A stretch of DNA of 64,000 bases from an uncultured Bacilli bacterium (GCA_934085825.1 CAKOHR010000002.1:113682-177681); one strand, 5' to 3'. Positions 879 to 28,055 are shown, counted from the stretch's first letter. Notes: a model not told the origin generated them from the sequence alone. Numbers and translations are program-made.

Positions 879-976
879 AGTATCACTCTCTTTTCTTTTA
901 AAATTATACCATATGAAAAGAAAAAAAACAAAGAAAAAAACCGATATGAATTAATAACTATTAATTTACTCTCTTT

Positions 977-1004
977 AAAAAAAGTACTCAACACGAGTAC
1001 TTTA
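977..1004 (-). terminator. Rho-independent terminator downstream of the serpin gene
   Basis: Perfect 7-bp stem AGTACTC/GAGTACT with a 5-nt loop, an A-run on the plus side and a T-run on the minus side. Confidence 0.6.
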
Positions 1005-1157
1005 AAATATTAACATAACGGAAATATAAATTACTAGTAAAACAATGCTAACAACGGATATTCCTTTTATATTAATTTTATTTTCATCTTTCATATTGCC
1101 TCAACTATATCAGTATAGCAATAATTTTGCTTAACTACAAGCATTAATATCAAAACT

Positions 1158-2744: not shown

Positions 2745-2755
2745 AATTTCTTTCC

Positions 2756-3574: not shown

Positions 3575-3577
3575 AAG

Positions 3578-4747
3578 CTAATCTCTCCCTTCCACAGAAA
3601 AATCTTGTGATGCAACAATTATATCTTCTGGATAATTAAAATTAAATCCATGTAAGCGATTAATTGTTTCCGTAGTAACGTTTACATACGCATAATTTAT
3701 TGTATCACCAGAATCGGCCCAAGTAAGATCCAAATGATAAAATTTACCATCAATTTTTACTAAATTCCATTCATGATAAACACCTGCAAATGCCGAATAA
3801 GATTCTAGACCTACCAGATTTGCAATAAAATTAAATGCTTGAGCATAATTATGACATTGACCATACCCTAAAACTAAAGGATAATATAAATCATGTGTTC
3901 CATTATTAGTACCATCTGTACTTTTATAAATCATTTTTTTAACAATAAATTCCGATATTTTAATTTCCTTTTCAAAATCTGTCATATCACTAGTTAAGGT
4001 ACTTGCAAAATTTTCAGCAACTTCTTTGGCTTCTTTGTAAGTTTTTATATTATTTTTATTCCATTCATATCTTTGGAAACTTTCACACCTTACATATGTA
4101 TCACTGCATCCACTTAGGCGTGTATTATCAAAATCTCTTTCATAAATTATATCATTATCTTTAAACTCATACAGATAAAAATTATTTAGACTATTATTTA
4201 ATATTTTATCAAGAGATGATACCATTACTTCTAAATTAGTTATATTGTTATTATAAAGTGTTGGCATATCTGTTAGATTATTTAATGAAGTAAGAACTGA
4301 TACATCTTCGATTTCATTTGAAAATAAGCTAAGTTTTTCTAAAGATGTTAAGTTTTTTAATGGACTTATATCTTTGATTTTATTTAAGTTAAGAAGAAGT
4401 ATTTTAAGTTTAGTAAGATTTTTTAATTTACTTATATCCTTGATGTTATTTTGACTCATAGATAAAGCTTCAAGATTTTTAAAGTATTCTATTCCTGATA
4501 TATCTTTGATATTTAAATTGTCTAAATAGAGACTTTTTATATTTAGGGCATCATTTATTTTTACTTCTTCGGTATTCATTATATTTTTTATAGCTTTTTC
4601 TAAGTTTTTATCTTTAAAAACTATTACATCACTTTCGATTATTTCTTCAGGAGTTTGGTTATCTTTGGCATTAAAATACTCAATACCAAAGATAATGCCA
4701 AGTAAAGACGTTATAATTAATAATAATATTATTACTTTTTTCATCAT
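3578..4747 (-). CDS. Secreted leucine-rich-repeat protein with a C-terminal transglutaminase-like (Cys-His-Asp) domain
   Basis: Signal/TM segment at the N-terminus. Tandem ~22-aa LRR units (LxxLxLxxNxIxDIS). C-terminal GQCHNYAQAF...HEWNLVKIDGKFYHLDLTWAD matches the transglutaminase-like cysteine protease core. Confidence 0.6.
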   Translation of the reverse strand: MMKKVIILLLIITSLLGIIFGIEYFNAKDNQTPEEIIESDVIVFKDKNLEKAIKNIMNTEEVKINDALNIKSLYLDNLNIKDISGIEYFKNLEALSMSQNNIKDISKLKNLTKLKILLLNLNKIKDISPLKNLTSLEKLSLFSNEIEDVSVLTSLNNLTDMPTLYNNNITNLEVMVSSLDKILNNSLNNFYLYEFKDNDIIYERDFDNTRLSGCSDTYVRCESFQRYEWNKNNIKTYKEAKEVAENFASTLTSDMTDFEKEIKISEFIVKKMIYKSTDGTNNGTHDLYYPLVLGYGQCHNYAQAFNFIANLVGLESYSAFAGVYHEWNLVKIDGKFYHLDLTWADSGDTINYAYVNVTTETINRLHGFNFNYPEDIIVASQDFSVEGRD

Positions 4748-7299
4748 TTTGCCTCATACCAATTATTACCTGTATCTATTTCTACTTTTAAAGGTACATT
4801 TAGCTTATAAACGTTTTCCATTTCTTCTTTAACAATATTTTTTATTTTTTCAAGTTCTTCGTTTTTACAATCTATTATTATTTCATCATGTACTTGAAGA
4901 AGTATTTTACTAGTTATGCCTTCATTTTTAAATCTATTATAAACCCTAATCATGGCTAGCTTCATAATATCAGCACTAGTACCTTGAATCGGAGTATTCA
5001 TTGCCATTCTTTCTCCCATTTGCTTAATCAAATAATTAGGATTATTAATCTCTTCAATAACTCTTCTTCTGCCAAATAGTGTTGTAACTCCACCAGTTTC
5101 TTTTGCTTCTTCTACTTTTTTATCTGTATATTCTTTTACTTCTGGATAAAGTGCGTGGAACTTATCTATATATTCTTCTGCATCTTTTCTTGAAATATGT
5201 AAGTTTTCTCCTAGGCCAAAGCCACTTATACCATAGATTATACCAAATATTACAGCTTTGGCGCATCTTCTCATTTGTTTTGTTACAGCTTCTTCAGGTA
5301 CTCCGAATACTTCACTTGCAACATGCGTATGAATATCTTCATTGTTATTAAATGCTTCGATTAAACTTGGACATTTAGATAAAGATGCCATAACTCTTAG
5401 CTCCACTTGACTATAATCACTACTTAAGAAACAATCATTCTCAGGAACAAATGCTTTTCTTATCTTTCTTCCTAGTTCTTCACGCACAGGTATATTTTGT
5501 AAATTTGGATCAGTTGATGAAAGCCTTCCAGTTCTAGTTAAAGTTTGCTTATATATCGTATGTATCTTACCATCTTCCAAAATATAGTTTGCTAAACCCT
5601 CAATATATGTGCTCTTAAGTTTGGCTAAATTTCTGTATTCTAGTATTTTTTCGATGATTGGGTGTTTGTCAACTAACTTTTCTAAAACTTTAACATCTGT
5701 TTTATAACCAGTTTTATTTTTCTTCCCCTTTGCTATTTGTAATTTTTCAAAAAGTATTTCTCCAAGTTGTTTAGGACTACCAATATTAAATTCTGTGCCT
5801 GCTAGTTCATATATTTCTCTAGTTAAAAGTTCAAGTTTTACTTCAAGTTCTAAAGACATATCTTTAAGCACATCTTCCCTACAAATTATACCAGTAGTTT
5901 CCATGTCTGCTAAAACTTTAACTAGAGGCATTTCTATATTTTCATATAAATCCATATATTTATTTTCATCTAAATTTTTCTTATATTCATCATTATTATC
6001 ATAAATAAATCTACTTCTTTTTATTACTTCCATTTCTATATTGCTAAATTTATCCTTTTTCATATTGTCATAATATAGAAAATTCTCTTCTGTTTGATTT
6101 GCTAAATATGCTAAATCATCTTTAATATTTAAATTTAAAAGATATGCTTCGATCATTAGATCATCTACAAAATTTATATCTGTTTTAAAGCTACATAACA
6201 CTTTCTTAGCATCATATGTTATTACATCAAAGGCTTTAATTTCTTCAAGAACACTTAATACATTTTCACCCGCAACATAGTAATTATTTAAACTATCACT
6301 TATACCCATTCCAAGTATATGTCCAATATGATAGTTTTCATTATCAAGTATTACTTCAATTGCTATCTTTTTATCTAATTCAATATTTTTTATACTACTT
6401 ATAGTTTTATATTCAAGTGTCTTTTCTTCTTTTTTAACTTCCATATTTTTTAAAAATGAGAAGAATTCTAAATCTTTAAAAAGTTCAACTAAATCATTAT
6501 TTACTTTTTGTTCATATTTTAAATCTTCAAGTACTATATTTAAAGGTACTTCCCTATATATAGTGGCTATTTTTTTACTTATAAAAGCCATTTCTTTATC
6601 ATTTTCTAGCTTTTCTTTAGTTTTACCAGTTATTTTATCTATATTATCATATAAGTTTTCTAAAGATTTATACTCTTGTAATAATTTTAAAGCTGTTTTT
6701 TCGCCGATACCTTTTACACCAGGGATGTTATCAGATGAATCCCCCATTAAGGCTTTTAAATCAATCATTCTAATTGGTTCAATGCCGTAGTCTTTCACAA
6801 ATGTTTCATGATTATATCTAATAAAACCACTTTGCTTTAGGAGTTTAACTTCTGTTTCATCACTTATAAGCTGTAGTAAATCTTTATCACTTGATACTAT
6901 GACTGATGCAAAATCTTTATCTTCTTCAGTCATTTTAACAATAGTTCCTACGATATCATCTGCTTCATATGGAGCAAGTTCAAAATGCTTAATTCCCATT
7001 TTATCAAGAATTTCTCTAGCAATTGGCATTTGAATTTTTAATTCTTCCGGTGTGTCTATTCTTCCTTCTTTATAAAAGTCATACTCTTCTTTTCTAAAGT
7101 TTTTACCTATATCAAAAGCAACAGCCATATAGGTTGGTTTTTCTTCCGCAATAATTTTATTCATCATTGAAACAAAACCAAATAAAGCGTTTGTTGGAAC
7201 ACCTTTAGAGTTTTTCATCATATTTCCTGTATAAGCAGTTGCGTAATAACTTCTAAACATTAAGTTATTTCCATCTATTAAAATAAGTTTTTTTACCAT
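4744..7299 (-). CDS. polA: DNA polymerase I
   Basis: 5'-3' exonuclease N-terminus (LILIDGNNLMFRSYYA); polymerase motifs A/B/C (DYSQVELR, RRCAKAVIFGIIYG, VHDE). Start placed at the ATG at 7299 with an AAGGGTGAT Shine-Dalgarno sequence; the tabled ORF starts at an upstream GTG. Confidence 0.9.
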   Translation of the reverse strand: MVKKLILIDGNNLMFRSYYATAYTGNMMKNSKGVPTNALFGFVSMMNKIIAEEKPTYMAVAFDIGKNFRKEEYDFYKEGRIDTPEELKIQMPIAREILDKMGIKHFELAPYEADDIVGTIVKMTEEDKDFASVIVSSDKDLLQLISDETEVKLLKQSGFIRYNHETFVKDYGIEPIRMIDLKALMGDSSDNIPGVKGIGEKTALKLLQEYKSLENLYDNIDKITGKTKEKLENDKEMAFISKKIATIYREVPLNIVLEDLKYEQKVNNDLVELFKDLEFFSFLKNMEVKKEEKTLEYKTISSIKNIELDKKIAIEVILDNENYHIGHILGMGISDSLNNYYVAGENVLSVLEEIKAFDVITYDAKKVLCSFKTDINFVDDLMIEAYLLNLNIKDDLAYLANQTEENFLYYDNMKKDKFSNIEMEVIKRSRFIYDNNDEYKKNLDENKYMDLYENIEMPLVKVLADMETTGIICREDVLKDMSLELEVKLELLTREIYELAGTEFNIGSPKQLGEILFEKLQIAKGKKNKTGYKTDVKVLEKLVDKHPIIEKILEYRNLAKLKSTYIEGLANYILEDGKIHTIYKQTLTRTGRLSSTDPNLQNIPVREELGRKIRKAFVPENDCFLSSDYSQVELRVMASLSKCPSLIEAFNNNEDIHTHVASEVFGVPEEAVTKQMRRCAKAVIFGIIYGISGFGLGENLHISRKDAEEYIDKFHALYPEVKEYTDKKVEEAKETGGVTTLFGRRRVIEEINNPNYLIKQMGERMAMNTPIQGTSADIMKLAMIRVYNRFKNEGITSKILLQVHDEIIIDCKNEELEKIKNIVKEEMENVYKLNVPLKVEIDTGNNWYEAK

Positions 7300-14944: not shown

Positions 14945-15576
14945 GATTTCAACCTCTTTCTAGCTTCTTTATAATTTGGACATGCAAGGCTCACTAAATG
15001 CCAAAAATTTTTACTATGATTTGCTTCAAAAAAATGACATAGTTCATGAATTATAACATAGTCAAGTAAATCAATGTCTTTTTTTAAAAGTTCAGTATTA
15101 AGTGTTACTGTTTTCCTACTGGGATTACACACTCCCCATCTAGTTATCATACTTCTAAACTTAAGAGTAAAATCTGGTAAATTAGAAAAACATTTCTTAG
15201 CTATTTCAACCTCACTTCTAAAAATTCTTTCAACTTCTGCCTTATAAAAAAGCTCTAATGCTTTCATGGATGGTGCATATACTTTATCGCCCTCAAACTT
15301 TATTCCTTCAACTTCTTCTTTTATTTCAATAAAATATTTTTTACCAAGATATAAAAACAATTCGTTATCATGAGCTTTTTCATAAGCTTTATCATACATT
15401 TTTAAGATACTTTCTTCATTTTCACCTATCATTTTAAGAATATTATCTTTTCCTAAATATATTGGGCATGTTACATATATTTTTAAATCCTCTTTAACTC
15501 TAAAATAAATATTTTTATTGTTTTTTCTAACTATTACTACTTCAATTTCTTTACCATTACTTGCTTTGTATGTCAT
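14941..15576 (-). CDS. YgjP-like (DUF45) zinc-dependent metallohydrolase
   Basis: HELCHFFEANH zinc-binding motif near the C-terminus. Confidence 0.6.
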   Translation of the reverse strand: MTYKASNGKEIEVVIVRKNNKNIYFRVKEDLKIYVTCPIYLGKDNILKMIGENEESILKMYDKAYEKAHDNELFLYLGKKYFIEIKEEVEGIKFEGDKVYAPSMKALELFYKAEVERIFRSEVEIAKKCFSNLPDFTLKFRSMITRWGVCNPSRKTVTLNTELLKKDIDLLDYVIIHELCHFFEANHSKNFWHLVSLACPNYKEARKRLKS

Positions 15577-15937
15577 TTTTTAGTAAGTCCCTTATTTCTT
15601 CTAAAGTCTTAAGTTCAACACTTTTAGATGGTGTTTTAGTTTTTTCTTCTTTGTGAGTTATCTTGTTTAATGCTTTAACAATTAAGAATAAACAAAAAGC
15701 TACTATTAAAAAATCAATTACACTTTGAAGAAATGCCCCATACATAATCTTAGTATCTTTAAATGTAATAGAAAGGCTAGAAAAATCAACGCCTCCAATA
15801 ATAAGACCAATAACTGGTGTAAAAATATTGTTAACTAAACTAGTTACAATCGAAGAAAAAGCACCTCCAACAATAACCCCAACTGCTAAATCTAATACAT
15901 TGCCTCTGTCAATAAATTTTTTAAATTCTTTAAACAT
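15557..15937 (-). CDS. mscL: Large-conductance mechanosensitive channel
   Basis: FKEFKKFIDRGNVLDLAVGVIVGGAF is the MscL signature. Confidence 0.85.
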   Translation of the reverse strand: MFKEFKKFIDRGNVLDLAVGVIVGGAFSSIVTSLVNNIFTPVIGLIIGGVDFSSLSITFKDTKIMYGAFLQSVIDFLIVAFCLFLIVKALNKITHKEEKTKTPSKSVELKTLEEIRDLLKNDIQSK

Positions 15938-16128
15938 CAAAATCAACTTCTTTCTTTAAATATTTTAACATAAAAAACTTAATATGTATATTCTAAATTT
16001 GTTTATTTCTAATGCGTTGGATATAAGTTGGAGAGGTATTTGCTCTTATGACTAAGTAAATTTTAATTTGTTTTTAAGTAAGATAATATTATTTTATATA
16101 GAAAAGTTAAAAAAATTTATAACTTGTA

Positions 16129-16157
16129 TTGAATATTAGCTTAAAATATTGTATAAT
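16129..16157 (+). promoter_or_regulatory. Sigma-A-type promoter TTGAAT-17-TATAAT driving the SAM riboswitch
   Basis: Read directly: TTGAAT at 16129-16134, 17-nt spacer, TG-TATAAT at 16150-16157. Confidence 0.55.
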
Positions 16158-16164
16158 TATATCA

Positions 16165-16290
16165 TATCTTATAAAGAGTGATGGAGGGACTAGCCCTTTG
16201 AAATCACACCAACTTATTAAATTAGGTGGTAATGCTAGAACTATAAGATACTTTCCTATCATCCAAGGTTATTCTTGGATGCTTTTTTAT
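16165..16290 (+). ncRNA. SAM-I (S-box) riboswitch with an intrinsic terminator; orphan (no downstream plus-strand gene)
   Basis: CUUAUAAAGAG...GGAGGGACUAGCCCUUUGAA...GGUGGUAAUGCUAGAACUAUAAG matches the S-box core (cf. B. subtilis yitJ leader CUUAUCAAGAG..GGAGGGACUGGCCCGAUGAA..GGUGCCAAUUCC..AGAUGAG). P1 forms from CUUAUAA with UUAUAAG. The terminator is UCCAAG-GUUAUU-CUUGGA followed by a U-run. Confidence 0.7.
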
Positions 16291-16352
16291 TTCTATGTTT
16301 ACAATTTTTACATAATAAATCCCCGCTTTTAAGCGAGGTTATTTTTTATTTA

Positions 16353-16429
16353 TGGCGTCCTTGGCAGGAATCGAACCTGTGACCTAATGCGTCGGAGGCA
16401 TTCGCTCTATCCTACTGAGCTACAAGGAC
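16353..16429 (-). tRNA. tRNA-Arg (anticodon CCG), CCA encoded
   Basis: Manual cloverleaf: acceptor GUCCUUG/CAAGGAC, D-stem GCUC/GAGC, anticodon stem AAUGC/GCAUU with loop CUCCGAC, T-loop UUCGAUU, discriminator G, CCA. A hairpin with a U-run follows. Confidence 0.85.
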
Positions 16430-16446
16430 CCACAAATATTTTATCA

Positions 16447-19400
16447 TTAATTTTTAGAAATAGCAATTAGCACTCTATTTTCATCTACAAAAAATTCTTC
16501 ATTTGCATTTTCATTATATTCTAACTTAGTTGCAAGAGTTTCTTTCTTAATATAATCACTAAAGTCTTCAATTGCATTTTTGACAGTATCACCTGCATTA
16601 TAACTAATACTTATTCTATCAGTAAGTTCATAGTTATTATTTTTTCTCATTTGTTGTACTTTTGATACTATTTCACGAGCGATACCTTCATTTACGAGTT
16701 CTGGTGTAAGAGTGGCATTTAAAATAACAAAGTTATTATTTTCCATTCCTACATCAAAACCTACTTTGGCATCTATTCTTATATCAACCATATCACTATA
16801 AATATCAGTATCATTACCAGCGATATTCATCTTTATACTTTCATTATTTTGAAGTTTCTTAATATCAGTTAAACTTAAATCTAGTAATTTTTCTTGGAAT
16901 TCTTTAAGATTTTTGCCAAATACTTTACCTACCACTCTAAAGTTTGGTTTAACAGTGAAGTTCATATAAAGTGATGTATCTTGAATATATGTAACTTTCT
17001 TAACATTTAATTCTTCTTTGATTAGTTCAGTAAGTTCTCCTATTATCATACTATTCTTACCATCAATTAGAATTTCACTTAAAGGTTGACGTACTCTTAG
17101 TTTTTGTTCTTCACGAATATTTCTACCAATACTTATAAGTTCACGAACTAAATCCATTTTTTCTTCAAGTAAATCTTCTAACTTACTTTCATCATATTTT
17201 GGAAAATCAGCTAAATGAACAGATTTTTCTCCAGTTAAATTAGTATACATTTCTTCAGAAAGATATGGAACTATCGGAGCCATCATCTTAGATAAGCCAA
17301 CTAAAACTTCATAAGTTGTAATGTAAACAGACTTTTTACTATTATCTAAGTTACTTGCCCAGAATCTATTTCGGTTTCTTCTTATGTACCAGTTAGATAA
17401 ATCATCAGATACAAAGTCAGTTAACGATCTTACAACTTTATTTAAATCATATTCATCATAAGATTCAGTAACATATTTTAATAATCTATTGTATTTACTT
17501 ATTAACCATCTATCAATATCTTCTCTTTCTTCTAAAGGTATATTACACGCATTTATATCAATATCATCAATATTAGCATACATTGAGAAGAAGTTATAAG
17601 TATTTTTAAGGGGATTAAAGAATTTAGAATGAACTTCTTTTAAACCATTTATATCAAATTTAAGTGGTACCCAGACAGGTGAAACATATGGAAGATAAAA
17701 TCTAACAGTATCTGCACCATATTCCTTCATCGTAGTAAATGGTTCAACAATATTACCCATTGTTTTACTCATTTTTTTACCATTTGCATCTAAAAGTAAA
17801 TCATTAACTAAAACATTTTTATATGGACTTACACCTTTTACAAATGTAGAAATAACTAAAAGTGTATAGAACCATCCACGTGTTTGGTCAATTCCTTCAC
17901 AAATGAAATCTGCTGGAAATTGTGTTTCAAATAAATCATTATTTTCAAATGGATAATGATATTGAGCAAATGGCATAGATCCTGAGTCAAACCAACAATC
18001 TATTACATCTTTACATCTAGTCATAGCTTTACCACATTCAGGGCATTTAAGATGAACTTCGTCAATATATGGTCTATGTAGTTCAATTGATTCATCAATA
18101 TTTTCAATTGCTTTTTCAACAAGTTCCTTGCGTGAACCAATCATTTCTGTGTGTCCACATGAACAAATCCAATAAGGAAGTGGTGTTCCCCAGTATCTAG
18201 AACGAGATATTGCCCAGTCATTTAAATTTTCTAACCAGTTACCAAATCTTTTTTCACCAACATATGATGGATACCAATTAACAGTTTTGTTATTAGCAAT
18301 TATTTTATCTTTAATCTTAGTTATTTCAAGATAATAGCTTGGTTTAGAATAATAAATAAGTGGTGTATGGCATCTCCAGCAATGAGGATAGTTGTGAACT
18401 ATTCTTTGTTTTTTAAATAATTTATCATTTTCTTTTAAATATTTGATTACTTCGCTATCAGCATCAAATACAAGCATGCCTTTCCATGGTCCTTCAGTAT
18501 ATTTACCATCTTCACCAACTGGATTTAAGTATGGTAAATTATATTTACGACCAACACTAGCATCATCCGCTCCGAATGCTGGTGCTAAGTGTACTACCCC
18601 AGTACCATCTTCAGCAGTTACATACTTATCACAACAAACAAAGAATCCTTTTTTGTTAACAGAAAGTTCTGGTATTAATTGTTCATATTCAGTATACTCT
18701 AAAGTACTTCCTTTAAAAGTATCAAGTATTTGTGCATCTTCACCTAAAACTTTAGAAATAAGTGATGTTGCTAAAATAAATTTAGTACCTTTACTTAAAA
18801 CTAAAGAATAGTCATAATCGGGGTTTACACATAAACCAACATTGGAAATTAATGTCCATGGTGTCGTTGTCCAAACTAAGAAGTAAACATCTTCACCCTT
18901 TTTTTTCATTGGTACAATTACAGTATCAACACTCATTTCTTCATATCCTTGAGCAACCTCATGCGATGCAAGACCAGTTCCACATCTTGGACAATAAGGA
19001 AGAATTTTTACTCCTTCATAAAATAATCCTTCTTCAAAAAACTTCTTTAATATCCACCATTCTGTTTCAATATAATTATTATCATATGTAACATATGGAT
19101 GTTTAATATCTATAAATTGTCCCATTTTTTCTGTTAAATCGGTAAATGTATCTTCGTTTTTCCAAACACTTTCACGACATTTTTGATTAAATTCTTTGAT
19201 ACCATATTTTTCAATATCTTTTTTACCAGTAAAGCCTAGTTCCTTTTCTACTTGTAGTTCAACTGGCAGCCCATGAGTATCCCAACCAACTTTACGAAGG
19301 ACTTTATACCCTTGCATAGTTTTATACTTGCAAATAGTATCTTTTAGAAATTTTGCTACCATATGATGAAGTCCCGGATGACCATTAGCTGTGGCAGGTC

Positions 19401-19539
19401 CATCATAGAAAACAAAATATGGGGCATCTTTCCTGTTTTCAATTGTTTCATTTAGGATATCTTCGCTTTTCCATTTTCCAAGTATTTTGCCTTCAACTTC
19501 AGAAACACTTTCTTTACTTAAACTTTTAAATCTTTCCAT
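16447..19539 (-). CDS. ileS: Isoleucyl-tRNA synthetase
   Basis: HMVAKF (HIGH-class motif) and KMSKT (KMSKS) motifs; editing domain; C-terminal zinc-binding region. True start is the internal ATG (MERFKSL) with a GGAGG Shine-Dalgarno sequence; the upstream 20 codons of the tabled ORF are T-box leader. Confidence 0.9.
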   Translation of the reverse strand: MERFKSLSKESVSEVEGKILGKWKSEDILNETIENRKDAPYFVFYDGPATANGHPGLHHMVAKFLKDTICKYKTMQGYKVLRKVGWDTHGLPVELQVEKELGFTGKKDIEKYGIKEFNQKCRESVWKNEDTFTDLTEKMGQFIDIKHPYVTYDNNYIETEWWILKKFFEEGLFYEGVKILPYCPRCGTGLASHEVAQGYEEMSVDTVIVPMKKKGEDVYFLVWTTTPWTLISNVGLCVNPDYDYSLVLSKGTKFILATSLISKVLGEDAQILDTFKGSTLEYTEYEQLIPELSVNKKGFFVCCDKYVTAEDGTGVVHLAPAFGADDASVGRKYNLPYLNPVGEDGKYTEGPWKGMLVFDADSEVIKYLKENDKLFKKQRIVHNYPHCWRCHTPLIYYSKPSYYLEITKIKDKIIANNKTVNWYPSYVGEKRFGNWLENLNDWAISRSRYWGTPLPYWICSCGHTEMIGSRKELVEKAIENIDESIELHRPYIDEVHLKCPECGKAMTRCKDVIDCWFDSGSMPFAQYHYPFENNDLFETQFPADFICEGIDQTRGWFYTLLVISTFVKGVSPYKNVLVNDLLLDANGKKMSKTMGNIVEPFTTMKEYGADTVRFYLPYVSPVWVPLKFDINGLKEVHSKFFNPLKNTYNFFSMYANIDDIDINACNIPLEEREDIDRWLISKYNRLLKYVTESYDEYDLNKVVRSLTDFVSDDLSNWYIRRNRNRFWASNLDNSKKSVYITTYEVLVGLSKMMAPIVPYLSEEMYTNLTGEKSVHLADFPKYDESKLEDLLEEKMDLVRELISIGRNIREEQKLRVRQPLSEILIDGKNSMIIGELTELIKEELNVKKVTYIQDTSLYMNFTVKPNFRVVGKVFGKNLKEFQEKLLDLSLTDIKKLQNNESIKMNIAGNDTDIYSDMVDIRIDAKVGFDVGMENNNFVILNATLTPELVNEGIAREIVSKVQQMRKNNNYELTDRISISYNAGDTVKNAIEDFSDYIKKETLATKLEYNENANEEFFVDENRVLIAISKN

Positions 19540-19885
19540 TTTCTTACCTCCAAAATAAAAAGGATAGCACCAAAAGGAGTCAATATATGACGGTACCATC
19601 CTTTAATTAACTTAATTATGATAACGGAATAACCCGATTAATCTCCGTAAGTGATCCATATTTAATTCTTTTATTAGCTTACACCAAATGCTAACTCTCT
19701 TTAAAAAGACTTTTAAATAACGTCTTACATCACTGATTACTTAATATAGTATACAATAATTTGTTTTTATATTCAAGTAAAATTAAAATAATGTTATTAA
19801 AAATGTATTTAGCAACAAGCATACCATTTTTTTGCGGAATAAATGTGTTTACTTGTTGCTTAATCATATATTATCATACTTGATT
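19540..19885 (-). promoter_or_regulatory. T-box leader (tRNA-sensing riboswitch) of ileS
   Basis: On the minus strand, the T-box sequence AAUUAAAGGAUGGUACCGUC (cf. AAUUAGGGUGGUACCGCG) lies immediately 5' of a terminator helix (AAAGGAUGGUACC / GGUGCUAUCCUUU) and a U-run. Promoter TTGCAA-17-TAATAT at ~19885-19911. Confidence 0.75.
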
Positions 19886-19907
19886 ATCAATTGCAAGTAT
19901 TTGTTGC

Positions 19908-21095
19908 TTATTTTTTGAAATATCTATAAGTTTTATGATTTTCTAGATTTACACCAGATGACTCAGCTAACTTTGAAACTGTTACAACACGGTAGCCATT
20001 AACATATAATAGTGGCAATAATTTGTCAATTGCTTCAACACTAGTTTGATGAATATCATGAAATAAAATAATGTTACCATCATTTACTTTTTCTAAAACA
20101 TAATTAGTTAAATATTCACTATTTCTATGACGCCAATCCATAGTATCAATATTCCAAAGAATGAACGAAGCATCTAATGAATCTTTTATTTTATTATTAA
20201 TTTCACCATATGGAGGACGAATTAAATGGAATGTATCACCAGTTATACTTTTTAACATTTCATTACTTTGGGCAAATTCTTCTTTGATGGTTTCTAACTT
20301 TTGTCTTTTAAAATTTTTATGGCTATATGAATGATAACCTATTTCCATCCCACTTTCATGAACTTTTAAAACAGTATCTTTATATATATCTATATTTTTT
20401 CCTAACATAAAAAATGTGGCAGTTGCTTTATTATTTTTTAAAATATCTACTAAAGCGCTTGTATATGGTCCGGGTCCATCATCAAATGTTATAGCAATTA
20501 TTTTTTTACTTCCATCTATTTTACTTCCATCTTCATTTTCATATGTTTTATCAAGTTTCACAGTGATATCTAGACAATCTTTTATTTCATTAAAGTTTAT
20601 ATGAAGTGATAATTCTTCATTAACCACAGGTTCTATTGCATAATCATAATAGTATATTATAAGTTCATTTTCTTTAATATAATAACTATTTGTTTTGTCA
20701 TGTAATTTTAATTTACTTGCTATAAAATTTGGATATTTTAAATATAAAAGATCTTTTACTTTCTCCCAAAAAGTGTCAACCATATCTGGTTTTAAAATAT
20801 TTTCTATGGAAACTTCCTCACCAGTTTTAAAATTAAATATTTTTGATATATATCTATCATCTTCCATGCTAACTACATTTGTAATTTTATTATCAAAATC
20901 TATTTCATCTACTAAATTATTTAAAGTACTTATGTATTTGCTTATTTTGGCATTTTTTATTTCTTTTGAATTACTTAATACCGGTAGGGAAAAAGAAAAA
21001 ATTTTAAATGAAGATGCTGTTACAAGCATAAAAATACTTATAACTATAGAAAATACTACACTTTTTTTGAGCTTTAATTTTCTTTGTTTCTTCAT
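19908..21095 (-). CDS. Membrane-anchored polysaccharide (peptidoglycan GlcNAc) deacetylase, NodB family
   Basis: N-terminal TM segment; NodB motifs ITFDDGPGP, HSYSH and LFHD. Confidence 0.8.
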   Translation of the reverse strand: MKKQRKLKLKKSVVFSIVISIFMLVTASSFKIFSFSLPVLSNSKEIKNAKISKYISTLNNLVDEIDFDNKITNVVSMEDDRYISKIFNFKTGEEVSIENILKPDMVDTFWEKVKDLLYLKYPNFIASKLKLHDKTNSYYIKENELIIYYYDYAIEPVVNEELSLHINFNEIKDCLDITVKLDKTYENEDGSKIDGSKKIIAITFDDGPGPYTSALVDILKNNKATATFFMLGKNIDIYKDTVLKVHESGMEIGYHSYSHKNFKRQKLETIKEEFAQSNEMLKSITGDTFHLIRPPYGEINNKIKDSLDASFILWNIDTMDWRHRNSEYLTNYVLEKVNDGNIILFHDIHQTSVEAIDKLLPLLYVNGYRVVTVSKLAESSGVNLENHKTYRYFKK

Positions 21096-21109
21096 TTAAA
21101 ACATCCTTT

Positions 21110-22492
21110 TTATATATTTTTAATATTCTTTTTATTAAATACTACAAATGATGTTATAACCATTATTAAGAAATATACTATACATACAATAATTGCATGA
21201 GTTAAACTTGTGCCATAAGGACTTGTTCCTCCAAATAAATAAACGTTAAAATCCCAGTTAGTTGTTACAAAATATTTAAGTATTTCTATTTTGTACATTG
21301 TTGCAAACATGTTTATAATTGAAGAGCCAATTACACCAGCAAAAGTTATTACTATTGCAAGAGCAGTATTACCAATAATTGTTGATGCAGCAAATGCTAA
21401 TGTTATAAGTAATAATATTTGTGGTAAATTAGCAATTGAATATATAAGTACATATTTAAATAAACTCATTTCTTCTAAACTTTTGGCTTTTAAATTATAC
21501 TCAACAACATGATTGCTTAAAGAATCAAAACCTAGGAATAAACCACCTATTACAATTTGCATTAAATACGCAATTATAATAAATAATATTGTAAGTAATA
21601 TAACCGTTATAAATTTAGAAAGTAAAATTGTACTTCTTTTATATGGAGTTGTAAGAAGTGATTTAATTGTCCCTTTATTATATTCTTCACTTACTATAGC
21701 ACCAGATATCATAACACCAAATACAAGGATTAGAAAAATATATTCTCCATAAAAATTAGTCAATATAAATCTTAAATCTCCTGCATTATTAATATCCTCT
21801 TTATTTTCTAAAATATACCTAGATTTATAATAATTTTTAACCGTTTCTTCTAGATCTGTTTTAGTTTCTTTGTTTGTGGTAGTTTCATAATTTTTAACAG
21901 ATGATGCACTATGGGTGATATCCTTGATTGCATTATTTAAATAGTCATTGCCATACTTTATATTTTCTTTTAGACGATATTCATCCATTTCAATTCCAAC
22001 ATTAGTTGCATAAATTTGAGTTTCTAATTCTCTTTTTTCTTTATCACTAGTGGCATTTTTTAAACTTTCTTCATAATTTTTTAATTCTTCTTTTAAATTA
22101 TCTAGATTGATATTTACAAAATATTTCCAATTGTCACTTTCTAATGCTTCTTTAACAGTTTTGTATTCTTTTTCAATATTTGAATCCAAATAGTCATTAT
22201 CTTTAGCAGAATAATAATTACTTACTACTCCATACGCATCATCCATGACATAGTATTGCCATGTTTTATTATTATATTTTTGACTTAATTCATTCATTTC
22301 TTTATTTATTTTATTTTCAGTAGCATTTCCCGTATCTAAGTCATAATATGTACTTGCTTCAGTATAATAAGTTTCTTCATGACTTATTAAATATGATACT
22401 AAGGTAATAAATAAAGCAGTTATAATCAATACAACATATGTACCTTTTTTATGTAATATTTTATATATTTCATTTTTTATTAAATTAATCAT
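21110..22492 (-). CDS. ABC-2 type transporter permease with a large extracytoplasmic loop
   Basis: 460 aa; TM1, then ~200-aa polar loop, then 5 TM segments; 8-nt overlap with the upstream ATPase. Confidence 0.6.
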   Translation of the reverse strand: MINLIKNEIYKILHKKGTYVVLIITALFITLVSYLISHEETYYTEASTYYDLDTGNATENKINKEMNELSQKYNNKTWQYYVMDDAYGVVSNYYSAKDNDYLDSNIEKEYKTVKEALESDNWKYFVNINLDNLKEELKNYEESLKNATSDKEKRELETQIYATNVGIEMDEYRLKENIKYGNDYLNNAIKDITHSASSVKNYETTTNKETKTDLEETVKNYYKSRYILENKEDINNAGDLRFILTNFYGEYIFLILVFGVMISGAIVSEEYNKGTIKSLLTTPYKRSTILLSKFITVILLTILFIIIAYLMQIVIGGLFLGFDSLSNHVVEYNLKAKSLEEMSLFKYVLIYSIANLPQILLLITLAFAASTIIGNTALAIVITFAGVIGSSIINMFATMYKIEILKYFVTTNWDFNVYLFGGTSPYGTSLTHAIIVCIVYFLIMVITSFVVFNKKNIKNI

Positions 22493-23378
22493 TATTTTTT
22501 TTACCTCCAGTCTTTTTTAAGAATGCTTCTTCTAAAGTTAATTCTTCCATCTTAACTTCATATATATCAATATTCTTCTTAACTAAAGTCTTTATTAATT
22601 TAGCTATTTCTTCTTTACTTCCATTATAAGCAAACTTTCTTTTCTTTACTTCATATATGCCTTCTATTTCAAGATTATCAGTATTACTTACTTTAAATAC
22701 ATATTTATTACCATTACTTTTAAATTCACTTACATTGCTAGTTTCTATAATTTTCCCATTATCAATTATTAAAACTTTATTACAGAAACTTTCTAGTTCT
22801 GCTAAGTTATGACTAGATATTAAAATTCCCATTCCATCACTTGCTAACTTCTTAAGTAGGTTTCTTAAATCTTTGATTCCTTCAGGATCAAGTCCGTTCG
22901 TTGGTTCATCAAGTATTAATATATTTGGCTTGTTGATTAAGGCTCTAGCTATGCCTAATCTTTGGCGCATACCTAAAGAATATTTACTTACTTTATCATT
23001 TATTCTTTTATCTAAGTCTACCAGTTTTACAATTTTTTTAATTTCTTCGTCTGTTACTTTCTTATATAGACTAGCCATCATTTTTAGATTTTGCCACCCA
23101 GTTAAGTACATATAGGTATCTGGATTTTCAACTATTGCCCCTACTTTTTCAATAGCTTTAACAAAATCTTTTTCAATATCATAGCCATTAATCATTACCT
23201 TTCCTTGATTCATTTTTTGAAGGCCTAAAATAAGCTTAATCGTGGTTGTTTTACCACTACCATTTGGCCCAATAAATGCTAAAATATCTCCCTCATCTAT
23301 TTCGAAGGAAACGTCTTTTAAAATTTGTTTTTTACCAAAACTCTTACACAAATTTTGACATTCTAATAATTTTTTCAT
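22485..23378 (-). CDS. ABC transporter ATP-binding protein
   Basis: Walker A GPNGSGKTT, signature LSLGMRQRL, Walker B ILILDEP. Start placed at MKKLLECQN (Shine-Dalgarno sequence present); the tabled ORF has an N-terminal extension. Confidence 0.85.
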   Translation of the reverse strand: MKKLLECQNLCKSFGKKQILKDVSFEIDEGDILAFIGPNGSGKTTTIKLILGLQKMNQGKVMINGYDIEKDFVKAIEKVGAIVENPDTYMYLTGWQNLKMMASLYKKVTDEEIKKIVKLVDLDKRINDKVSKYSLGMRQRLGIARALINKPNILILDEPTNGLDPEGIKDLRNLLKKLASDGMGILISSHNLAELESFCNKVLIIDNGKIIETSNVSEFKSNGNKYVFKVSNTDNLEIEGIYEVKKRKFAYNGSKEEIAKLIKTLVKKNIDIYEVKMEELTLEEAFLKKTGGKKNND

Positions 23379-23503
23379 AATATATTTTCCTTTCTCCCAT
23401 ATTATAGCACATAGAAAAATAGATGCATTATACTTTACATCTATTTTACATATATTTTTATTTATTCCGAGAAAATCATTTTTTTTCATTTTTTCGGAAT
23501 TGA

Positions 23504-24361
23504 TTATCTTTTAAAAGTTTTAAAATATACATCTTTTAGTCTATCACTTGAAACATGAGTATAAATACCCGTTGTACTTAGATTAGCATGACCTAAAAGC
23601 TCTTGAACAGTTCTAATATCGGCACCATTATTAAGTAGATGAGTAGCAAATGTATGTCTAAGTGTATGCGGAGTCACATGAGTTTTAATTGATATATGTT
23701 TCATAATATCTTTAATAATGTATTCAACTTCTTCAATAGTTAGCTTTTCTCCTTTTTTATTTGTAAATAGATATCCTTTTCTATCTTTGCCATGTAAATA
23801 CATTTCTAGATACTTACTTGCATAGTCACCAAAATATACAATTCTTTCTTTACTTCCTTTACCCATTACTTTAATAGTTTTATTTCTTAAATCTATATCA
23901 TTTATTTTTACATTTACCATTTCTCCTACTCTACAACCAGTTGAATAAAACATTTCAATTAACAATCTTTTTTCCAGACCATCTTCTGTAGATATATCAA
24001 TAGATTCAAGTATTTCTTCTATTTCATTATAGTTTAAATAATTAGGTAACTTTTTTTCTAATTTAGGATTTTTAACATTTAAAAATATATTACTTTTAAT
24101 AAGTCCATTTTCAAGTAAATAGTTATAAAAGGTTCGCAAAGCACTTATTCTTCTAGATATAGTAGTATTCTTTAAATTACATGTATCTAAATATTTCAAG
24201 TATCCTCTTACATGTATATTCTCTATATTTAAAAAGTCTATCTTACGTGAATTTACATACTTAAAAAAATCAGTTAAATCTAACTGATAATTTTTAATTG
24301 TATAATCTGAGTAATTAACTTCATCTTTTAAATAATGTAAGAATTTATCTATTTCTTTCAT
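23504..24361 (-). CDS. Tyrosine site-specific recombinase (XerC/XerD-like)
   Basis: C-terminal catalytic HTLRHTFATHLL...GHANLSTTGIYTHV (R..H..R..Y pattern); 285 aa; N-terminal SAM-like domain. Confidence 0.8.
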   Translation of the reverse strand: MKEIDKFLHYLKDEVNYSDYTIKNYQLDLTDFFKYVNSRKIDFLNIENIHVRGYLKYLDTCNLKNTTISRRISALRTFYNYLLENGLIKSNIFLNVKNPKLEKKLPNYLNYNEIEEILESIDISTEDGLEKRLLIEMFYSTGCRVGEMVNVKINDIDLRNKTIKVMGKGSKERIVYFGDYASKYLEMYLHGKDRKGYLFTNKKGEKLTIEEVEYIIKDIMKHISIKTHVTPHTLRHTFATHLLNNGADIRTVQELLGHANLSTTGIYTHVSSDRLKDVYFKTFKR

Positions 24362-24716
24362 CTTCGTTATCTCTTTCTAATAAAACGTTTTTCAAATTAT
24401 CAAATTTTTCTCTTAACTCTTGGAGTTTTCGTTGATCATATACCATATCACTACGACATTCAGTTATTTCTTGATAATGTACTCCTGGAGTTTTGATTCG
24501 TTCTTCACAGGCTTTGATATCTTGCATTAAATCTACTATTTCCTCATTTATATGCTTTAGTTCATTACCTAGAAGTATTGTAAATTCATGGTTTGTAATA
24601 GGATTCATAAGGGCTACTTCTTCATCGGTTAAATTTTCTGTTTCTTCCATGTGTTCTTTACGATATTCATCAATAAGTATTTTTTGATATTCTTTTGTTT
24701 TTTCATTTAAAGTCAT
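24345..24716 (-). CDS. Hypothetical coiled-coil protein (123 aa), translationally coupled to the recombinase
   Basis: 17-nt overlap with the xer-like start; highly charged; no recognised motif. Confidence 0.4.
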   Translation of the reverse strand: MTLNEKTKEYQKILIDEYRKEHMEETENLTDEEVALMNPITNHEFTILLGNELKHINEEIVDLMQDIKACEERIKTPGVHYQEITECRSDMVYDQRKLQELREKFDNLKNVLLERDNEDERNR

Positions 24717-24718
24717 AT

Positions 24719-25357
24719 TTATTCCGCCTTTTCTACACGTATATAACCCTTTAATTCTTTTTCTAAATTATTGTTTTGATTTTCACTTAAATTAACATAT
24801 GTAACTTTGGCATTCCATTTTTCAAGTTTTTCGCTTTCGGTTGTAAGAAGCCTATTTCTTGTTATATAAAATTTTCCAATAGAGGTTGTAATATCAAATC
24901 CTTTGATAGTGTTTCCTTGACCATCAACAACACTTACATAATTTAATCCTTCAACACTAGTTACTTCATTTCCATCATAATCTTTAACTTCTAATATTAG
25001 TTCTGGTTTTTTTTCACTAGTAGAATAAGTTAGTGTATTACTTTCAATATTTAAATATATGTTGTATTTGATACTGGAAATTTCACTACCTTCTTCACGT
25101 CTTAGATAAGCACTAGCAAATGTTTCAGAGGATAGATTTCCCATTTTATCTTTAAAATTGTTTACATCTGGATATATACCAATTGGATTTCCAGCATCGA
25201 ATAAAATATAATTAAGTGTTGCTGTACTAGTTTCTATTTTAGGTGAAAAACGAGCCACCCGAACCATAGTAAAGTATGCATATGTTGCACCAGTTACAAG
25301 CATTAAGAGTGAAAACACATATAATGCTGTAATAATATTTCTAAATTTTTTACTCAT
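24719..25357 (-). CDS. Secreted protein with a SipW-cognate (TasA/camelysin-class) signal peptide; short paralog
   Basis: N-terminal KK-TM-GATYAYF matches the G(G/A)T(F/Y/W)A(Y/A)F motif of TasA/CalY-class signal peptides. Paralogous to residues 1-210 of the adjacent 524-aa protein. Confidence 0.5.
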   Translation of the reverse strand: MSKKFRNIITALYVFSLLMLVTGATYAYFTMVRVARFSPKIETSTATLNYILFDAGNPIGIYPDVNNFKDKMGNLSSETFASAYLRREEGSEISSIKYNIYLNIESNTLTYSTSEKKPELILEVKDYDGNEVTSVEGLNYVSVVDGQGNTIKGFDITTSIGKFYITRNRLLTTESEKLEKWNAKVTYVNLSENQNNNLEKELKGYIRVEKAE

Positions 25358-25394
25358 TTAATCACCTTTTCTATTTTTTTATAGTAAAAATTGT

Positions 25395-25795
25395 TTCTTT
25401 AACGTAGCATCTACGCATAATGTTCAAAACTTTGTCACTAACTTTTGCTATCGCCACTGCCTCGCCTGCCAACAGTGCAGACGCGGCAGCCTTTTGTTTC
25501 TCTCAAAGCCTACCTCTTCCTTCTCACTCCAGCTGAACTTTGCGCGGCCTGCCCAGCACGCGGACGCGCTGGACAGGCATGACCTAAAGCACTAGTTTAT
25601 TACCATCGGGTCGTCGGCGCTGCCACTCCCCGATACATAAGTTATGGAAGACTCAAGATTGAAGGACGGCCTCACGCCACCACTGCCGTTATCCACATAG
25701 CTGCGGTCCACGAAACCATCGCTGTTCAAAAGGAACGCACTGCGCGGAATGTCCGCATAACGGGAAATAGTCCATTCCCATAAGCCCATAAACAT
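25395..25795. other. ~400-bp GC-rich island (~55% GC vs ~28% background) spanning the last ~65 codons of the 524-aa gene and 210 bp downstream
   Basis: Direct base composition (e.g. 25441-25500 is 34/60 G+C). Codons switch to GGC/GTG/CCG/GCC. An 11-bp GC hairpin (gcctgcccagc / gctggacaggc) sits 3' of the stop with no U-tract. Confidence 0.8.
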
Positions 25796-27166
25796 CCAAT
25801 TTGATGTTGTAGCTGCTCTATAATCTTTTGTTGCATCACTATTATATCCAGGATATGTCCAATATGTTGGATCTGCTGCGTAGCCATAATCACTTACATA
25901 CATTAAACCCATTTTTGCTGTGTATTCTGTAGCATTATCTGTACTATTTGTCGTTACTGGATTTACTATTTCATTTTGATATGCTACATTCATTGCTGCT
26001 TCACCTATTTTTGTCCAAGTGTTTCCCCCAACTTTCCATGTTGTTGTCGCTATTTTATTTGCCCATTCTGTTCCTATATTTGTTATGAAATTTGTGTTTA
26101 AATTTGTTTTATTTAACATGCTTTCACTCCATGTGTTTTTACTTGTTGAGTTATTCCAATAATAGATATTTATTGTTGTCAAACTTCCTTTGTATGTGGA
26201 ATAGCTACTTTTCGAAAATATACTTGGTTTATAATCTCCATCTGTTCCAAGTAAATTACTATTTGCATAATCATATTTGATTACTTTTACTTTATCTCCA
26301 AATACTCCGATTATTCTATACAAATTATCTGTTGGACATGGCGTTGTATTGGTTCCAAAACATACATAGTTATTTGGATTTGCTCCAGCATATCTATATG
26401 AGTTATCTTCTGCTCCATTTGCTAAGCTTGCATCATGATAATACATTCCATTATCTCCTTGTGTTCCTGTGTAAAGTTTTGCTACATGACATGATAATGT
26501 ATTATCATTACAATTTGTGTGTAAAGCATATTTTTCCTTTTGTACCATAACTTTGGCACTCATACTTTTGCCAGCATTGTTATTTTGGCTTGCATCATAG
26601 TTTACAAATGTTACTGCTATATTCCACTGTTCTTCTTTACTTGGTGTTGCTGTTATTTCTCTGTTATTAAATAGTGTTATTACTCCCTTTTTATTTGTTA
26701 TGTCATATCCAGAGATACTTGTACCACTTGCATCTTTTACAGAGGTATGTGTTAAACCAGCAATATCTGTTATTTCGGTTCCTGTGCTATCAGTTACTGT
26801 CATTATTATTTCTGGGGTACTATCATCTATTGAATATGTAAATGTATTATTTTCAATATTTAAATAAACATAATAATGTTCTGTTGCGGTATTAGTCTTG
26901 TTATTGGCTGTTAGATTTACTTTAGCAAAAGTGTTTCCAACTCGATTTCCTTTTCCACTTGCAAAATTATCTTGATCTAGTGTAAAGGAAATAGGATTAC
27001 CTACCGAAAATGTAAATGTATCTACGGTGTAAGATGAAACCTTGATATCTGCAGATTTTGGGTCTCCACCTTGAGCTTTAAAATAGGCATATGTTGCCCC
27101 TACCACTAGTAATACTAGGGTTATTATTGTTATTACACTTAGAATAATTGATTTCTTTTTTGACAT
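25592..27166 (-). CDS. Secreted protein with a SipW-cognate signal peptide and a DUF6273-like C-terminal domain (GVRP motif)
   Basis: N-terminal LVVGATYAYF. C-terminal ...GLWEWTISRY...SAFLLNSDGFVDRSYVDNGSGGVRPSFNLESS resembles the W-W-x-R-S-P...GVRPAL C-terminal module. Promoter TTGAAT-17-TATAAT and an AAAGGAG Shine-Dalgarno sequence. Confidence 0.5.
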   Translation of the reverse strand: MSKKKSIILSVITIITLVLLVVGATYAYFKAQGGDPKSADIKVSSYTVDTFTFSVGNPISFTLDQDNFASGKGNRVGNTFAKVNLTANNKTNTATEHYYVYLNIENNTFTYSIDDSTPEIIMTVTDSTGTEITDIAGLTHTSVKDASGTSISGYDITNKKGVITLFNNREITATPSKEEQWNIAVTFVNYDASQNNNAGKSMSAKVMVQKEKYALHTNCNDNTLSCHVAKLYTGTQGDNGMYYHDASLANGAEDNSYRYAGANPNNYVCFGTNTTPCPTDNLYRIIGVFGDKVKVIKYDYANSNLLGTDGDYKPSIFSKSSYSTYKGSLTTINIYYWNNSTSKNTWSESMLNKTNLNTNFITNIGTEWANKIATTTWKVGGNTWTKIGEAAMNVAYQNEIVNPVTTNSTDNATEYTAKMGLMYVSDYGYAADPTYWTYPGYNSDATKDYRAATTSNWMFMGLWEWTISRYADIPRSAFLLNSDGFVDRSYVDNGSGGVRPSFNLESSITYVSGSGSADDPMVIN

Positions 27167-27293
27167 ATAACTTGCTCCTTTTTATCATAAGTCAATTATA
27201 TAATAAATTGATATTTTATTCAATGATTTTTTAAAATAATATTGCCAAAAATATATTTTTAAGGTAAAATTAATATAGAGAGAAGGTATACAA

Positions 27294-28055
27294 ATGAAAA
27301 ATAATGTTAATGACTTAGATTATTCTGTTGAAACTTTTTTTAATCACGACGGGTCAAAAAAAGATACAAAAATAGATGAATCAATAAAAACTTTTTTTAA
27401 TAATGATGGTACTAAAAAAAGTTCAAGAATGGATGAAGTTGTTAGAAAAAGTACTAAATGTACTCCCACTAAAAATGTAAGACGTGTTAAACAAAAACCA
27501 AAAGGAACGAAAAAATTTGCTATAAAAATTATTGTTCTAGTTGCCGTCGGTACTGGTCTTGTAACTACAACTAGTCAATTAAAGACTGCTATAGATACTA
27601 CTAATGAGGCTTTTGCTGTTAGAAGTACCATTGGAAGTTCAGTAAGTGATAATATAAATTATGGTTCATATAATCCAAATGAACAAAAACCATATTGGGA
27701 TTATGATGTTGATTCTATGGCGCAGGATGTTTTAACTAAAAATAAAGAATATGATATTGATACAAGAATATATGGATGTTATTCTAGATTAAATGATTAT
27801 AGAAAAGAATTCTATATGAATAAAATTTTTGAAAAAATGTCTAAAATAGTTTCTAGTTCTCCAGATTCATATACTGATGAAGAAATAAAAGCTTGTTTAC
27901 ATGGTTCATTTGATAGTTATTTAGAAAGTAAAGGTGTTTCACGGGCAGAATATTGCAAAATAATGGATGAAGTTGTTCGAGCATATGCAAAAGAAAATAT
28001 ATCTCATGAAGAAATAAATGATTTATTAGAATCTATGAATGGAGGTTCAAGATGA
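27294..28055 (+). CDS. Hypothetical single-pass membrane protein (253 aa) with a duplicated N-terminal TFFN(H/N)DG(S/T)KK motif
   Basis: TM segment FAIKIIVLVAVGTGLVTTT; tandem ETFFNHDGSKKDT / KTFFNNDGTKKSS repeats; 4-nt overlap with the next gene. Confidence 0.5.
   Translation: MKNNVNDLDYSVETFFNHDGSKKDTKIDESIKTFFNNDGTKKSSRMDEVVRKSTKCTPTKNVRRVKQKPKGTKKFAIKIIVLVAVGTGLVTTTSQLKTAIDTTNEAFAVRSTIGSSVSDNINYGSYNPNEQKPYWDYDVDSMAQDVLTKNKEYDIDTRIYGCYSRLNDYRKEFYMNKIFEKMSKIVSSSPDSYTDEEIKACLHGSFDSYLESKGVSRAEYCKIMDEVVRAYAKENISHEEINDLLESMNGGSR

Follow-up and report, generated by a model that had tools for sequence, protein, structure and literature searches.

A SAM-I riboswitch without a downstream gene beside tRNA-Arg in an uncultured Bacilli bacterium, probably a stranded leader

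Layout of the locus

The window, that is, the whole stretch of 64,000 nucleotides analysed here, has a GC content of 27% and encodes a class B RNase P RNA. An IleS scan with one genome per GTDB species places its nearest relatives among uncultured gut Bacilli MAGs. The element under study consists of a promoter-like site, a SAM-I aptamer, and an intrinsic terminator on the plus strand (hereinafter, the SAM element). It lies between mscL and a tRNA-Arg(CCG) gene, with ileS and its T-box leader beyond (Table 1). As claimed in the preliminary description of this DNA, tRNA-Arg and ileS are encoded on the minus strand and oppose the SAM element. The description also placed the next plus-strand gene about 11 kb away, which is consistent with the ORF content of the region: all plus-strand ORFs in 16350-27294 are short and nested within longer minus-strand ORFs.

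Table 1. Features at the SAM element and its surroundings, counted from the first nucleotide of the window
Feature	Position	Strand	Remarks
mscL	15557-15937	-	divergent neighbour, upstream of the SAM element
mscL promoter region	15947-16012		conserved in L091 and L094
Probable decayed partial tRNA-Arg copy	16009-16056	-	D arm and anticodon arm
Promoter-like site	16129-16157	+	TTGAAT-17-TATAAT, 10/12 matches
SAM-I aptamer, P4-less subtype	16166-16249	+	RF00162 match
Aptamer helix P1	16166-16173 with 16242-16249	+	
Aptamer helix P2 (P2a and P2b)	16178-16207	+	k-turn-like internal loop
Aptamer helix P3	16208-16230	+	
Aptamer pseudoknot	16190-16193 with 16235-16238	+	P2-loop CUAG complementary to J3/4 CUAG
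Degenerate antiterminator 5' strand	16244-16256	+	from comparison with family leaders
Intrinsic terminator	16260-16292	+	9-bp stem 16260-16281, T-run 16283-16288
AT-rich spacer	16293-16320	+	without ribosome-binding site
Second hairpin	16321-16338		between riboswitch terminator and tRNA-Arg
tRNA-Arg(CCG)	16353-16429	-	convergent with the riboswitch
ileS (class I Ile-tRNA synthetase)	16447-19539	-	convergent with the riboswitch
T-box leader of ileS	19572-19742	-	58 bits, E = 3e-11

Between 16293 and tRNA-Arg, there is neither a ribosome-binding site nor an ORF, except for a 6-codon ATG..TAA at 16296-16316. The window copy thus lacks what makes a riboswitch a cis-acting leader, namely a gene behind it on the same strand. 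Two ORFs that overlap the structured RNA, one of 67 aa on the plus strand (16129-16332) and one of 51 aa on the minus strand (16107-16262), have no support and were dismissed.

The T-box leader of ileS scores below the Rfam gathering score of 93 bits, and default annotation would therefore miss it here. The ileS T-boxes of several relatives score 94-118 bits.

The aptamer and its P4-less family

The preliminary description recognised an S-box aptamer in the SAM element, and a comparison with RF00162 bears this out. The window aptamer aligns over the full length of the model (positions 1-108) and scores 65.3 bits, well above the gathering score (44.4), with E = 6e-13 (cmscan, Rfam 15). Helix P4 is wholly deleted in this alignment (17 model positions), and, with P4 absent, the four-way junction of P1-P4 found in SAM-I is not formed. 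Helices P1, P2, and P3 are in place, the pseudoknot between the P2 loop and J3/4 is kept, and the upper-case consensus core positions of RF00162 are retained.

Metagenomes were scanned with the pattern GGAGGGACTAGCCC-N(20-50)-AATGCTAG, which combines the P2b/loop motif and the J3/4 motif. Near-identical P4-less aptamers were found at at least 120 loci (L098-L217) on human-gut and other metagenome contigs. All matches listed but one have the same 56-nt motif spacing as the window, and P4 is absent from all of them. The window aptamer fits the structure of this family, in whose 30-sequence alignment 99% of cells pair. P2a covaries: four of its five pairs are changed on both sides, and the covariation score is higher than in any of 500 shuffles or any slid control. 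Because the search pattern set the pseudoknot and P2b, these are uninformative on conservation, whereas P3 was left free by the pattern, yet is nearly invariant. Only one family-invariant column is altered in the window: C16214T replaces C-G by a U.G pair. The two further departures at columns at least 90% conserved are accounted for by one 1-nt deletion immediately 3' of P1. The predicted fold is thus that of a bona fide SAM-I-type aptamer, a three-helix variant like the whole P4-less subfamily. The literature searched contains no description of a P4-less SAM-I aptamer, which does not in itself prove novelty.

Genes stand behind the members of this family. Among the matches listed, 112 aptamers have at least 350 nt of downstream sequence. 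In 108 of them, the next 300 nt hold a ribosome-binding site and the start of an ORF no shorter than 50 aa (median 79 nt). Of the four exceptions, three gain an ORF if the ribosome-binding-site filter is removed; the window copy is the fourth. An ORF therefore lies behind the aptamer in 111/111 other family members with enough downstream sequence, which leaves the window copy as the sole true orphan among the family matches listed. The ORFs are MetK-like in 64 of the 108 cases listed (representative proteins were checked), and are either ~340 aa with all three MAT domains or ~260 aa with a recognisable N domain. The non-MetK ORFs include small ORFs that recur and an FGase-family protein. The P4-less subtype is common in these gut Bacilli and normally precedes a metK-like gene, or one of a few others, by 60-150 nt.

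The longest contigs that bear family matches reach 529 kb, and the surroundings can be those of an ordinary chromosome, as in L107, where relA/spoT, dtd, gmk, and mutL adjoin the leader. A search among the matches listed found no mscL, ileS, or tRNA-Arg beside any other family member. The aptamer pattern has 0 matches in viral contigs, and the idea that the SAM element came from a phage thus gains no support.

Several features of the family loci are worth recording. The ~260-aa MetK-like proteins (MIEKVNPSHPDK...) stand directly behind the riboswitch at 35 of the 108 loci listed, e.g., L101 (6473-7255, plus strand), L114, and L168. Pfam sees only the S-AdoMet synthetase N domain in them (42 bits), and MAT chains in the PDB match residues 3-61 and 150-203. 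This protein may be a much shortened methionine adenosyltransferase. Two small-ORF families without Pfam match also lie behind the SAM riboswitch, one of ~80-98 aa (...FPFVVDF...) and one of ~70 aa (...LPFGN...); examples of the two are found in L107 (408-704, plus strand), L144, L177, L104, and L137. In L169, two complete P4-less aptamers are arranged in tandem (3942-3997 and 4133-4188, plus strand), each with its own terminator, upstream of one FPFVVD-family ORF. A box such as TATAAGATGT is found just upstream of the ribosome-binding site, 0-45 nt past the terminator T-run, in 42 of 83 distinct family leaders listed; it is absent from the window copy. The box is complementary to the 5' end of the leader (ACATCTTATA), and the two may form a second, long-range pairing for translation control or RNA stability.

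Expression platform and extent of the leader

The promoter-like site ends 8 nt ahead of P1, with transcription predicted to start at ~16164. The preliminary description took its hexamers as a good promoter. The site is present, and the region is homologous to the promoter region of family leaders; the hexamers alone prove nothing, since promoter-like hits are as frequent in shuffles (9 observed, 9.1 expected) in DNA of 27% GC. The terminator proposed in the same description stands out clearly, as shuffles yield 0.2 ± 0.5 terminators. Its stem reads CATCCAAGG-TTAT-TCTTGGATG.

The part of the leader that would couple SAM to termination is damaged. In the family, the antiterminator is formed by the 3' strand of P1 plus AAC (AAGATAAC), which can pair with GTTATCTT in the terminator loop and 3' arm. 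In the window, the 5' strand of the antiterminator reads AAGATAC instead of AAGATAAC, owing to a 1-nt deletion, and the terminator loop and 3' arm read GTTATTCTT instead of GTTATCTT, owing to a 1-nt insertion. These two indels abolish the antiterminator pairing.

Folding energies are consistent with this loss. In equilibrium calculations, which leave co-transcriptional folding aside and use more than 70 intact sister leaders for comparison, the terminator hairpin has -11.4 kcal/mol in the window and -9.5 ± 1.8 kcal/mol in the family. The best antiterminator, calculated with the 5' arm blocked, reaches only -0.9 kcal/mol in the window, as against a family mean of -6.1 ± 2.0 kcal/mol. For the full leader, the terminator-free optimum lies 10.3 kcal/mol above the terminator optimum in the window, as against a family mean of 2.7 ± 2.5 kcal/mol, and by this measure a gap at least this wide is seen in just one of 75 family leaders. 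With respect to the difference between antiterminator and terminator, the window is the most extreme among 74 distinct platforms. The mutually exclusive terminator and antiterminator that share the P1 3' strand in an OFF terminator riboswitch were not found in the window copy. Because the antiterminator is gone and the terminator is strong, SAM-dependent read-through is not expected, and the calculations predict that the window copy should terminate at any SAM level.

The homology of the window to family leaders is confined to the leader itself. Specifically, blastn aligns the window with family leaders at 72-84% identity from ~16100-16136 to ~16290 only, a segment that runs from the promoter through the terminator T-run, with nothing beyond. 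Short-word blastn against 1.9 Mb of loci returned only chance AT-rich matches for the tail (16285-16352) and the upstream filler (16013-16128), and tblastn with every family downstream protein found no remnants of these proteins in the window. After the terminator, family leaders usually have a AGAAAGGAG-type ribosome-binding site and a start codon, whereas the window has the AT-rich spacer.

The SAM element is best compared with the SAM-I leaders of Firmicutes metK and met genes (RF00162). It shares with them P1, the P2 internal loop, P3, the pseudoknot, the conserved core, and a terminator-type platform, and its sister copies precede MetK-like genes. Unlike them, it has a P4-less aptamer, with a three-way instead of the canonical four-way junction, and the window copy has neither a downstream gene nor a working antiterminator.

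The second hairpin is scored as a terminator on the minus strand only, and is the minus-strand terminator of the tRNA-Arg/ileS unit. In plus-strand reading, its stem contains a C.A mismatch and TTATTTTTTATTT comes after the hairpin, where any remaining read-through would be halted ahead of tRNA-Arg. Of the two T-tails in the hairpin region behind tRNA-Arg (16321-16352), the one in the direction of the tRNA (ATTTATTATG) is poor and the one facing the other way (TTATTTTTTATTT) is good; the corresponding hairpins of relatives have proper T-tails in the tRNA direction.

The tRNA-Arg site and the origin of the SAM element

The SAM element is restricted to one lineage. Among the 80 ileS loci returned by the IleS scan, a motif screen found no SAM-I core motif, and a search with Rfam found no SAM aptamer at the 11 closest of them. 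The nearest species, L001 and L002 (IleS identity 86% and 83%, respectively), have ileS, tRNA-Arg, and the terminator hairpin, and no riboswitch. In L002, mscL follows only ~105 nt further on, whereas the corresponding spacer in the window measures 406 nt. The preliminary description had proposed to check whether relatives carry metK, metNPQ, or another gene at this place; as the relatives are without a riboswitch at the locus altogether, the comparison neither confirms such an arrangement nor reveals the trace of a deleted gene.

Look-ups guided by MscL define the lineage. The SAM element is 100% identical in every strain with identical MscL, and in L095, with MscL 97% identical, the 406-nt spacer is 98.5% identical. 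It is limited to one species-level lineage (MscL at least 97% identical) and occurs in every sampled strain of that species. At 87-91% MscL identity, the species are without it, and an HD-domain gene, a gene of 153-155 aa, or a DUF4143 gene plus an ISL3 transposase stands in its place. Compared with the window, L095 has two substitutions in the promoter spacer and one in the aptamer, which keeps the pair (U-A to U.G). Identity between the two strains is 97.5% in the element (4 differences in 162 nt) and 97.9-98.4% in the adjacent coding sequence, a comparison of little power. There is no sign of special constraint on the sequence of the element.

The site itself is a target of integration. Three sister strains (L081, L083, and L084) are lysogens whose prophage has inserted at the 3' end of tRNA-Arg(CCG). 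The prophage genes (L081 about 1-5587, L083, and L084) encode a Peptidase_S74 tail fibre, an Acb2/Tad1-hairpin anti-defence-like protein, DUF6275, and Peptidase_M23. The attachment core is the tRNA-Arg 3' end at 16353-16370, TGGCGTCCTTGGCAGGAA. In the lysogens, just TGGCGTCCTTGGCAGGAA is left beside the SAM element, followed by phage DNA; the repeat does not occur elsewhere in the window. L095 carries a different foreign insertion at the same point of tRNA-Arg. On the other flank, the gene content upstream of mscL is different in every related species looked at.

The far edge of the insert is marked by a trace of a second tRNA. The segment 16009-16021 (CTAATGCGTTGGA) is a 12/13 copy of the tRNA-Arg anticodon-arm segment 16384-16396, with a score that 0/1000 shuffles reach. 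A gapped alignment extends the copy over the D arm, which matches more weakly and contains a 13-nt insertion; its score is reached by 6/2000 shuffles. Homology to the mscL upstream region of relatives stops at ~16008-16012, the edge of the insert. The SAM element is thus bracketed by the intact tRNA-Arg and a decayed partial copy, and adjoins the conserved mscL promoter region. The geometry of the decayed copy is at odds with the usual simple model, by which the 3' half of the tRNA is contributed by the element that integrates. Judged from these comparisons, the tRNA-Arg/mscL site is a recombination hot spot, and the SAM element is a lineage-specific insert at a very plastic site.

We consider the SAM element to be the stranded leader of a lost gene, with its switch broken, and not a new kind of regulator, with a probability of roughly two in three. 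Of the roles offered in the preliminary description, that of a relic is the one favoured by the data: the family precedes genes, homology ends at the terminator, and the element is absent from the locus in the nearest species. A ~350-nt piece with a SAM leader lies between tRNA-Arg and mscL in one species-level lineage, the coding part being absent. This piece is homologous to intact leaders and truncated before the gene, its platform is degraded, and the region around it is rearranged. We propose that recombination brought to the site either a unit of leader and gene or the leader alone. The coding part would then have been lost, and decay of the platform would have begun. MscL-guided look-ups among related strains and species found no intermediate state with the gene still attached, nor was a parent copy found, and the loss of the gene is therefore deduced and not observed. 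At present, the promoter is probably active, and its transcript probably retains the fold of a SAM-competent aptamer. Transcription would end at the strong terminator with or without SAM, giving a constitutive RNA of ~125 nt; the second hairpin would catch any leak before tRNA-Arg, and no gene would be regulated. The element may persist because it is young or harmless.

Several findings count against this account. The aptamer is essentially undamaged, and its lone change at an invariant column keeps the pairing. Both the promoter hexamers and the terminator have stayed intact, and no sampled strain of the species lacks the element. Moreover, useless DNA is expected to be deleted from a small, gene-dense genome. 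The same features would suit a stand-alone SAM-binding sRNA of ~125 nt that acts in trans, by pairing with mRNA or by binding protein, and in which SAM alters the conformation and not the length. The promoter-like site, the full aptamer core, and the strong terminator are all intact; the element is found in all sampled strains, including one that is ~2% diverged with the aptamer pair kept; and loss of the antiterminator would be tolerable for a dedicated sRNA. The element is, however, confined to one species-level lineage and no more conserved than the flanking coding sequence, and every other family member listed is an ordinary leader, so that a very recent co-option would be needed. Apart from this intactness, nothing favours such an sRNA, and we regard it as unlikely. 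Less likely again is the specific case of a leader co-opted as a free-standing, constitutive SAM-binding RNA of ~125 nt, serving as a conformational sRNA in trans or as a sponge for SAM or protein; if it were true, a cis-to-trans transition would have been caught very early, in an uncultured gut bacterium with a reduced genome. Known non-coding riboswitch RNAs offer partial parallels. EutX/Rli55 of Enterococcus and Listeria is a non-coding RNA controlled by an AdoCbl riboswitch, with a working switch and with protein-binding sites in the read-through part. The window element likewise has no protein-coding gene behind the riboswitch, but its read-through part is a featureless AT-rich spacer of ~30-60 nt. 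SreA and SreB of Listeria, whose trans target is reportedly prfA, resemble the window element in that a short, terminated SAM-I transcript, potentially a free RNA, is predicted here as well. SreA of Listeria monocytogenes precedes genes expected to be cis-regulated, according to a preprint (bioRxiv 10.1101/2024.05.28.596223); the window element, unlike SreA, has no cis gene.

The orientation of the SAM element invites a further reading, put forward in the preliminary description, of SAM-dependent antisense or transcriptional-interference control over the tRNA-Arg/ileS unit. On this reading, low SAM would allow read-through into the antisense of tRNA-Arg and ileS and lower their expression. The two units are convergent, and the terminator T-run is just 63 nt from the tRNA-Arg 3' end. 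Antisense action of an S-box has precedent (PMC2566862, PMC9943018). Specifically, downstream of the Clostridium acetobutylicum ubiG-mccBA operon, SAM controls read-through from an S-box into a long antisense RNA over methionine-to-cysteine genes, and this S-box, too, is a SAM-I element with its own promoter at the 3' end of a convergent unit (PMC2566862). The ubiG-type traits of ligand-dependent read-through, a ligand-linked target, and conservation were not found in the window in silico. The window platform cannot switch, because without a competing antiterminator read-through should not depend on SAM; the second hairpin and its T-run intervene ahead of tRNA-Arg; SAM has no metabolic link to tRNA-Arg or ileS, and ileS already has a T-box; and the arrangement is unconserved, since relatives have the same ileS-tRNA-Arg unit without the element. 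Nor do SAM riboswitches as a class show an antisense tendency: ~0.7% of them (56/8,095) are antisense to the next gene, which is not an enrichment (P = 1.0; Serrano-Gutierrez and Merino 2023, PMC9943018). We find an antisense role highly improbable. Several antisense riboswitches near pseudogenes or transposases were deemed fortuitous in that survey (PMC9943018), and the window element fits this picture: it was left facing its neighbour after local rearrangement, and relatives show no synteny. It departs from the fortuitous cases in that it has no ORF or pseudogene of any kind and in that more than 70 intact sisters provide a yardstick for the decay of its platform. A role in cis, in which the riboswitch would control any element inserted at the tRNA-Arg attachment site, is scarcely credible. 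Such control could gate the first prophage ORF in lysogens, and a Cys-rich phage ORF of 144 aa does lie on the riboswitch strand ~200 nt past the terminator (L081, L083, and L084). The switch of the lysogens is nevertheless broken in the same way, the sequence being 100% identical; hairpin 2 and the attachment core intervene; the element also occurs in non-lysogens and beside the different insertion of L095; and the phage ORF has no visible SAM connection.

If the SAM element is a stranded leader, the finding is ordinary, yet it provides a clean, datable case of how leaders become stranded. The setting would be one of multi-copy, ~80% identical leaders adjoining a tRNA integration hot spot, and the order of decay would be the expression platform before the aptamer, which is still intact. 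It would also be a caution for annotation and for surveys of 'antisense-acting' or 'orphan' riboswitches, since regulation does not follow from a good covariance score together with a promoter and a terminator. The P4-less three-helix SAM-I variant, widespread in gut and rumen metagenomes, is possibly more important than the orphan itself, and would serve structural and synthetic studies as a minimal natural SAM-I aptamer. We consider this subfamily, with its truncated MetK-like and small-ORF cargo, most worth follow-up.

Two independent Logan contigs, L085 and L086, both end at window position 16195, inside the aptamer. An assembly graph with k = 31 would break in this way if the samples also contained a second family member (...CATCTTATAAAGAGTGATGGAGGGACTAGCCC), and the shared end hints at further family copies in the same genome or community.
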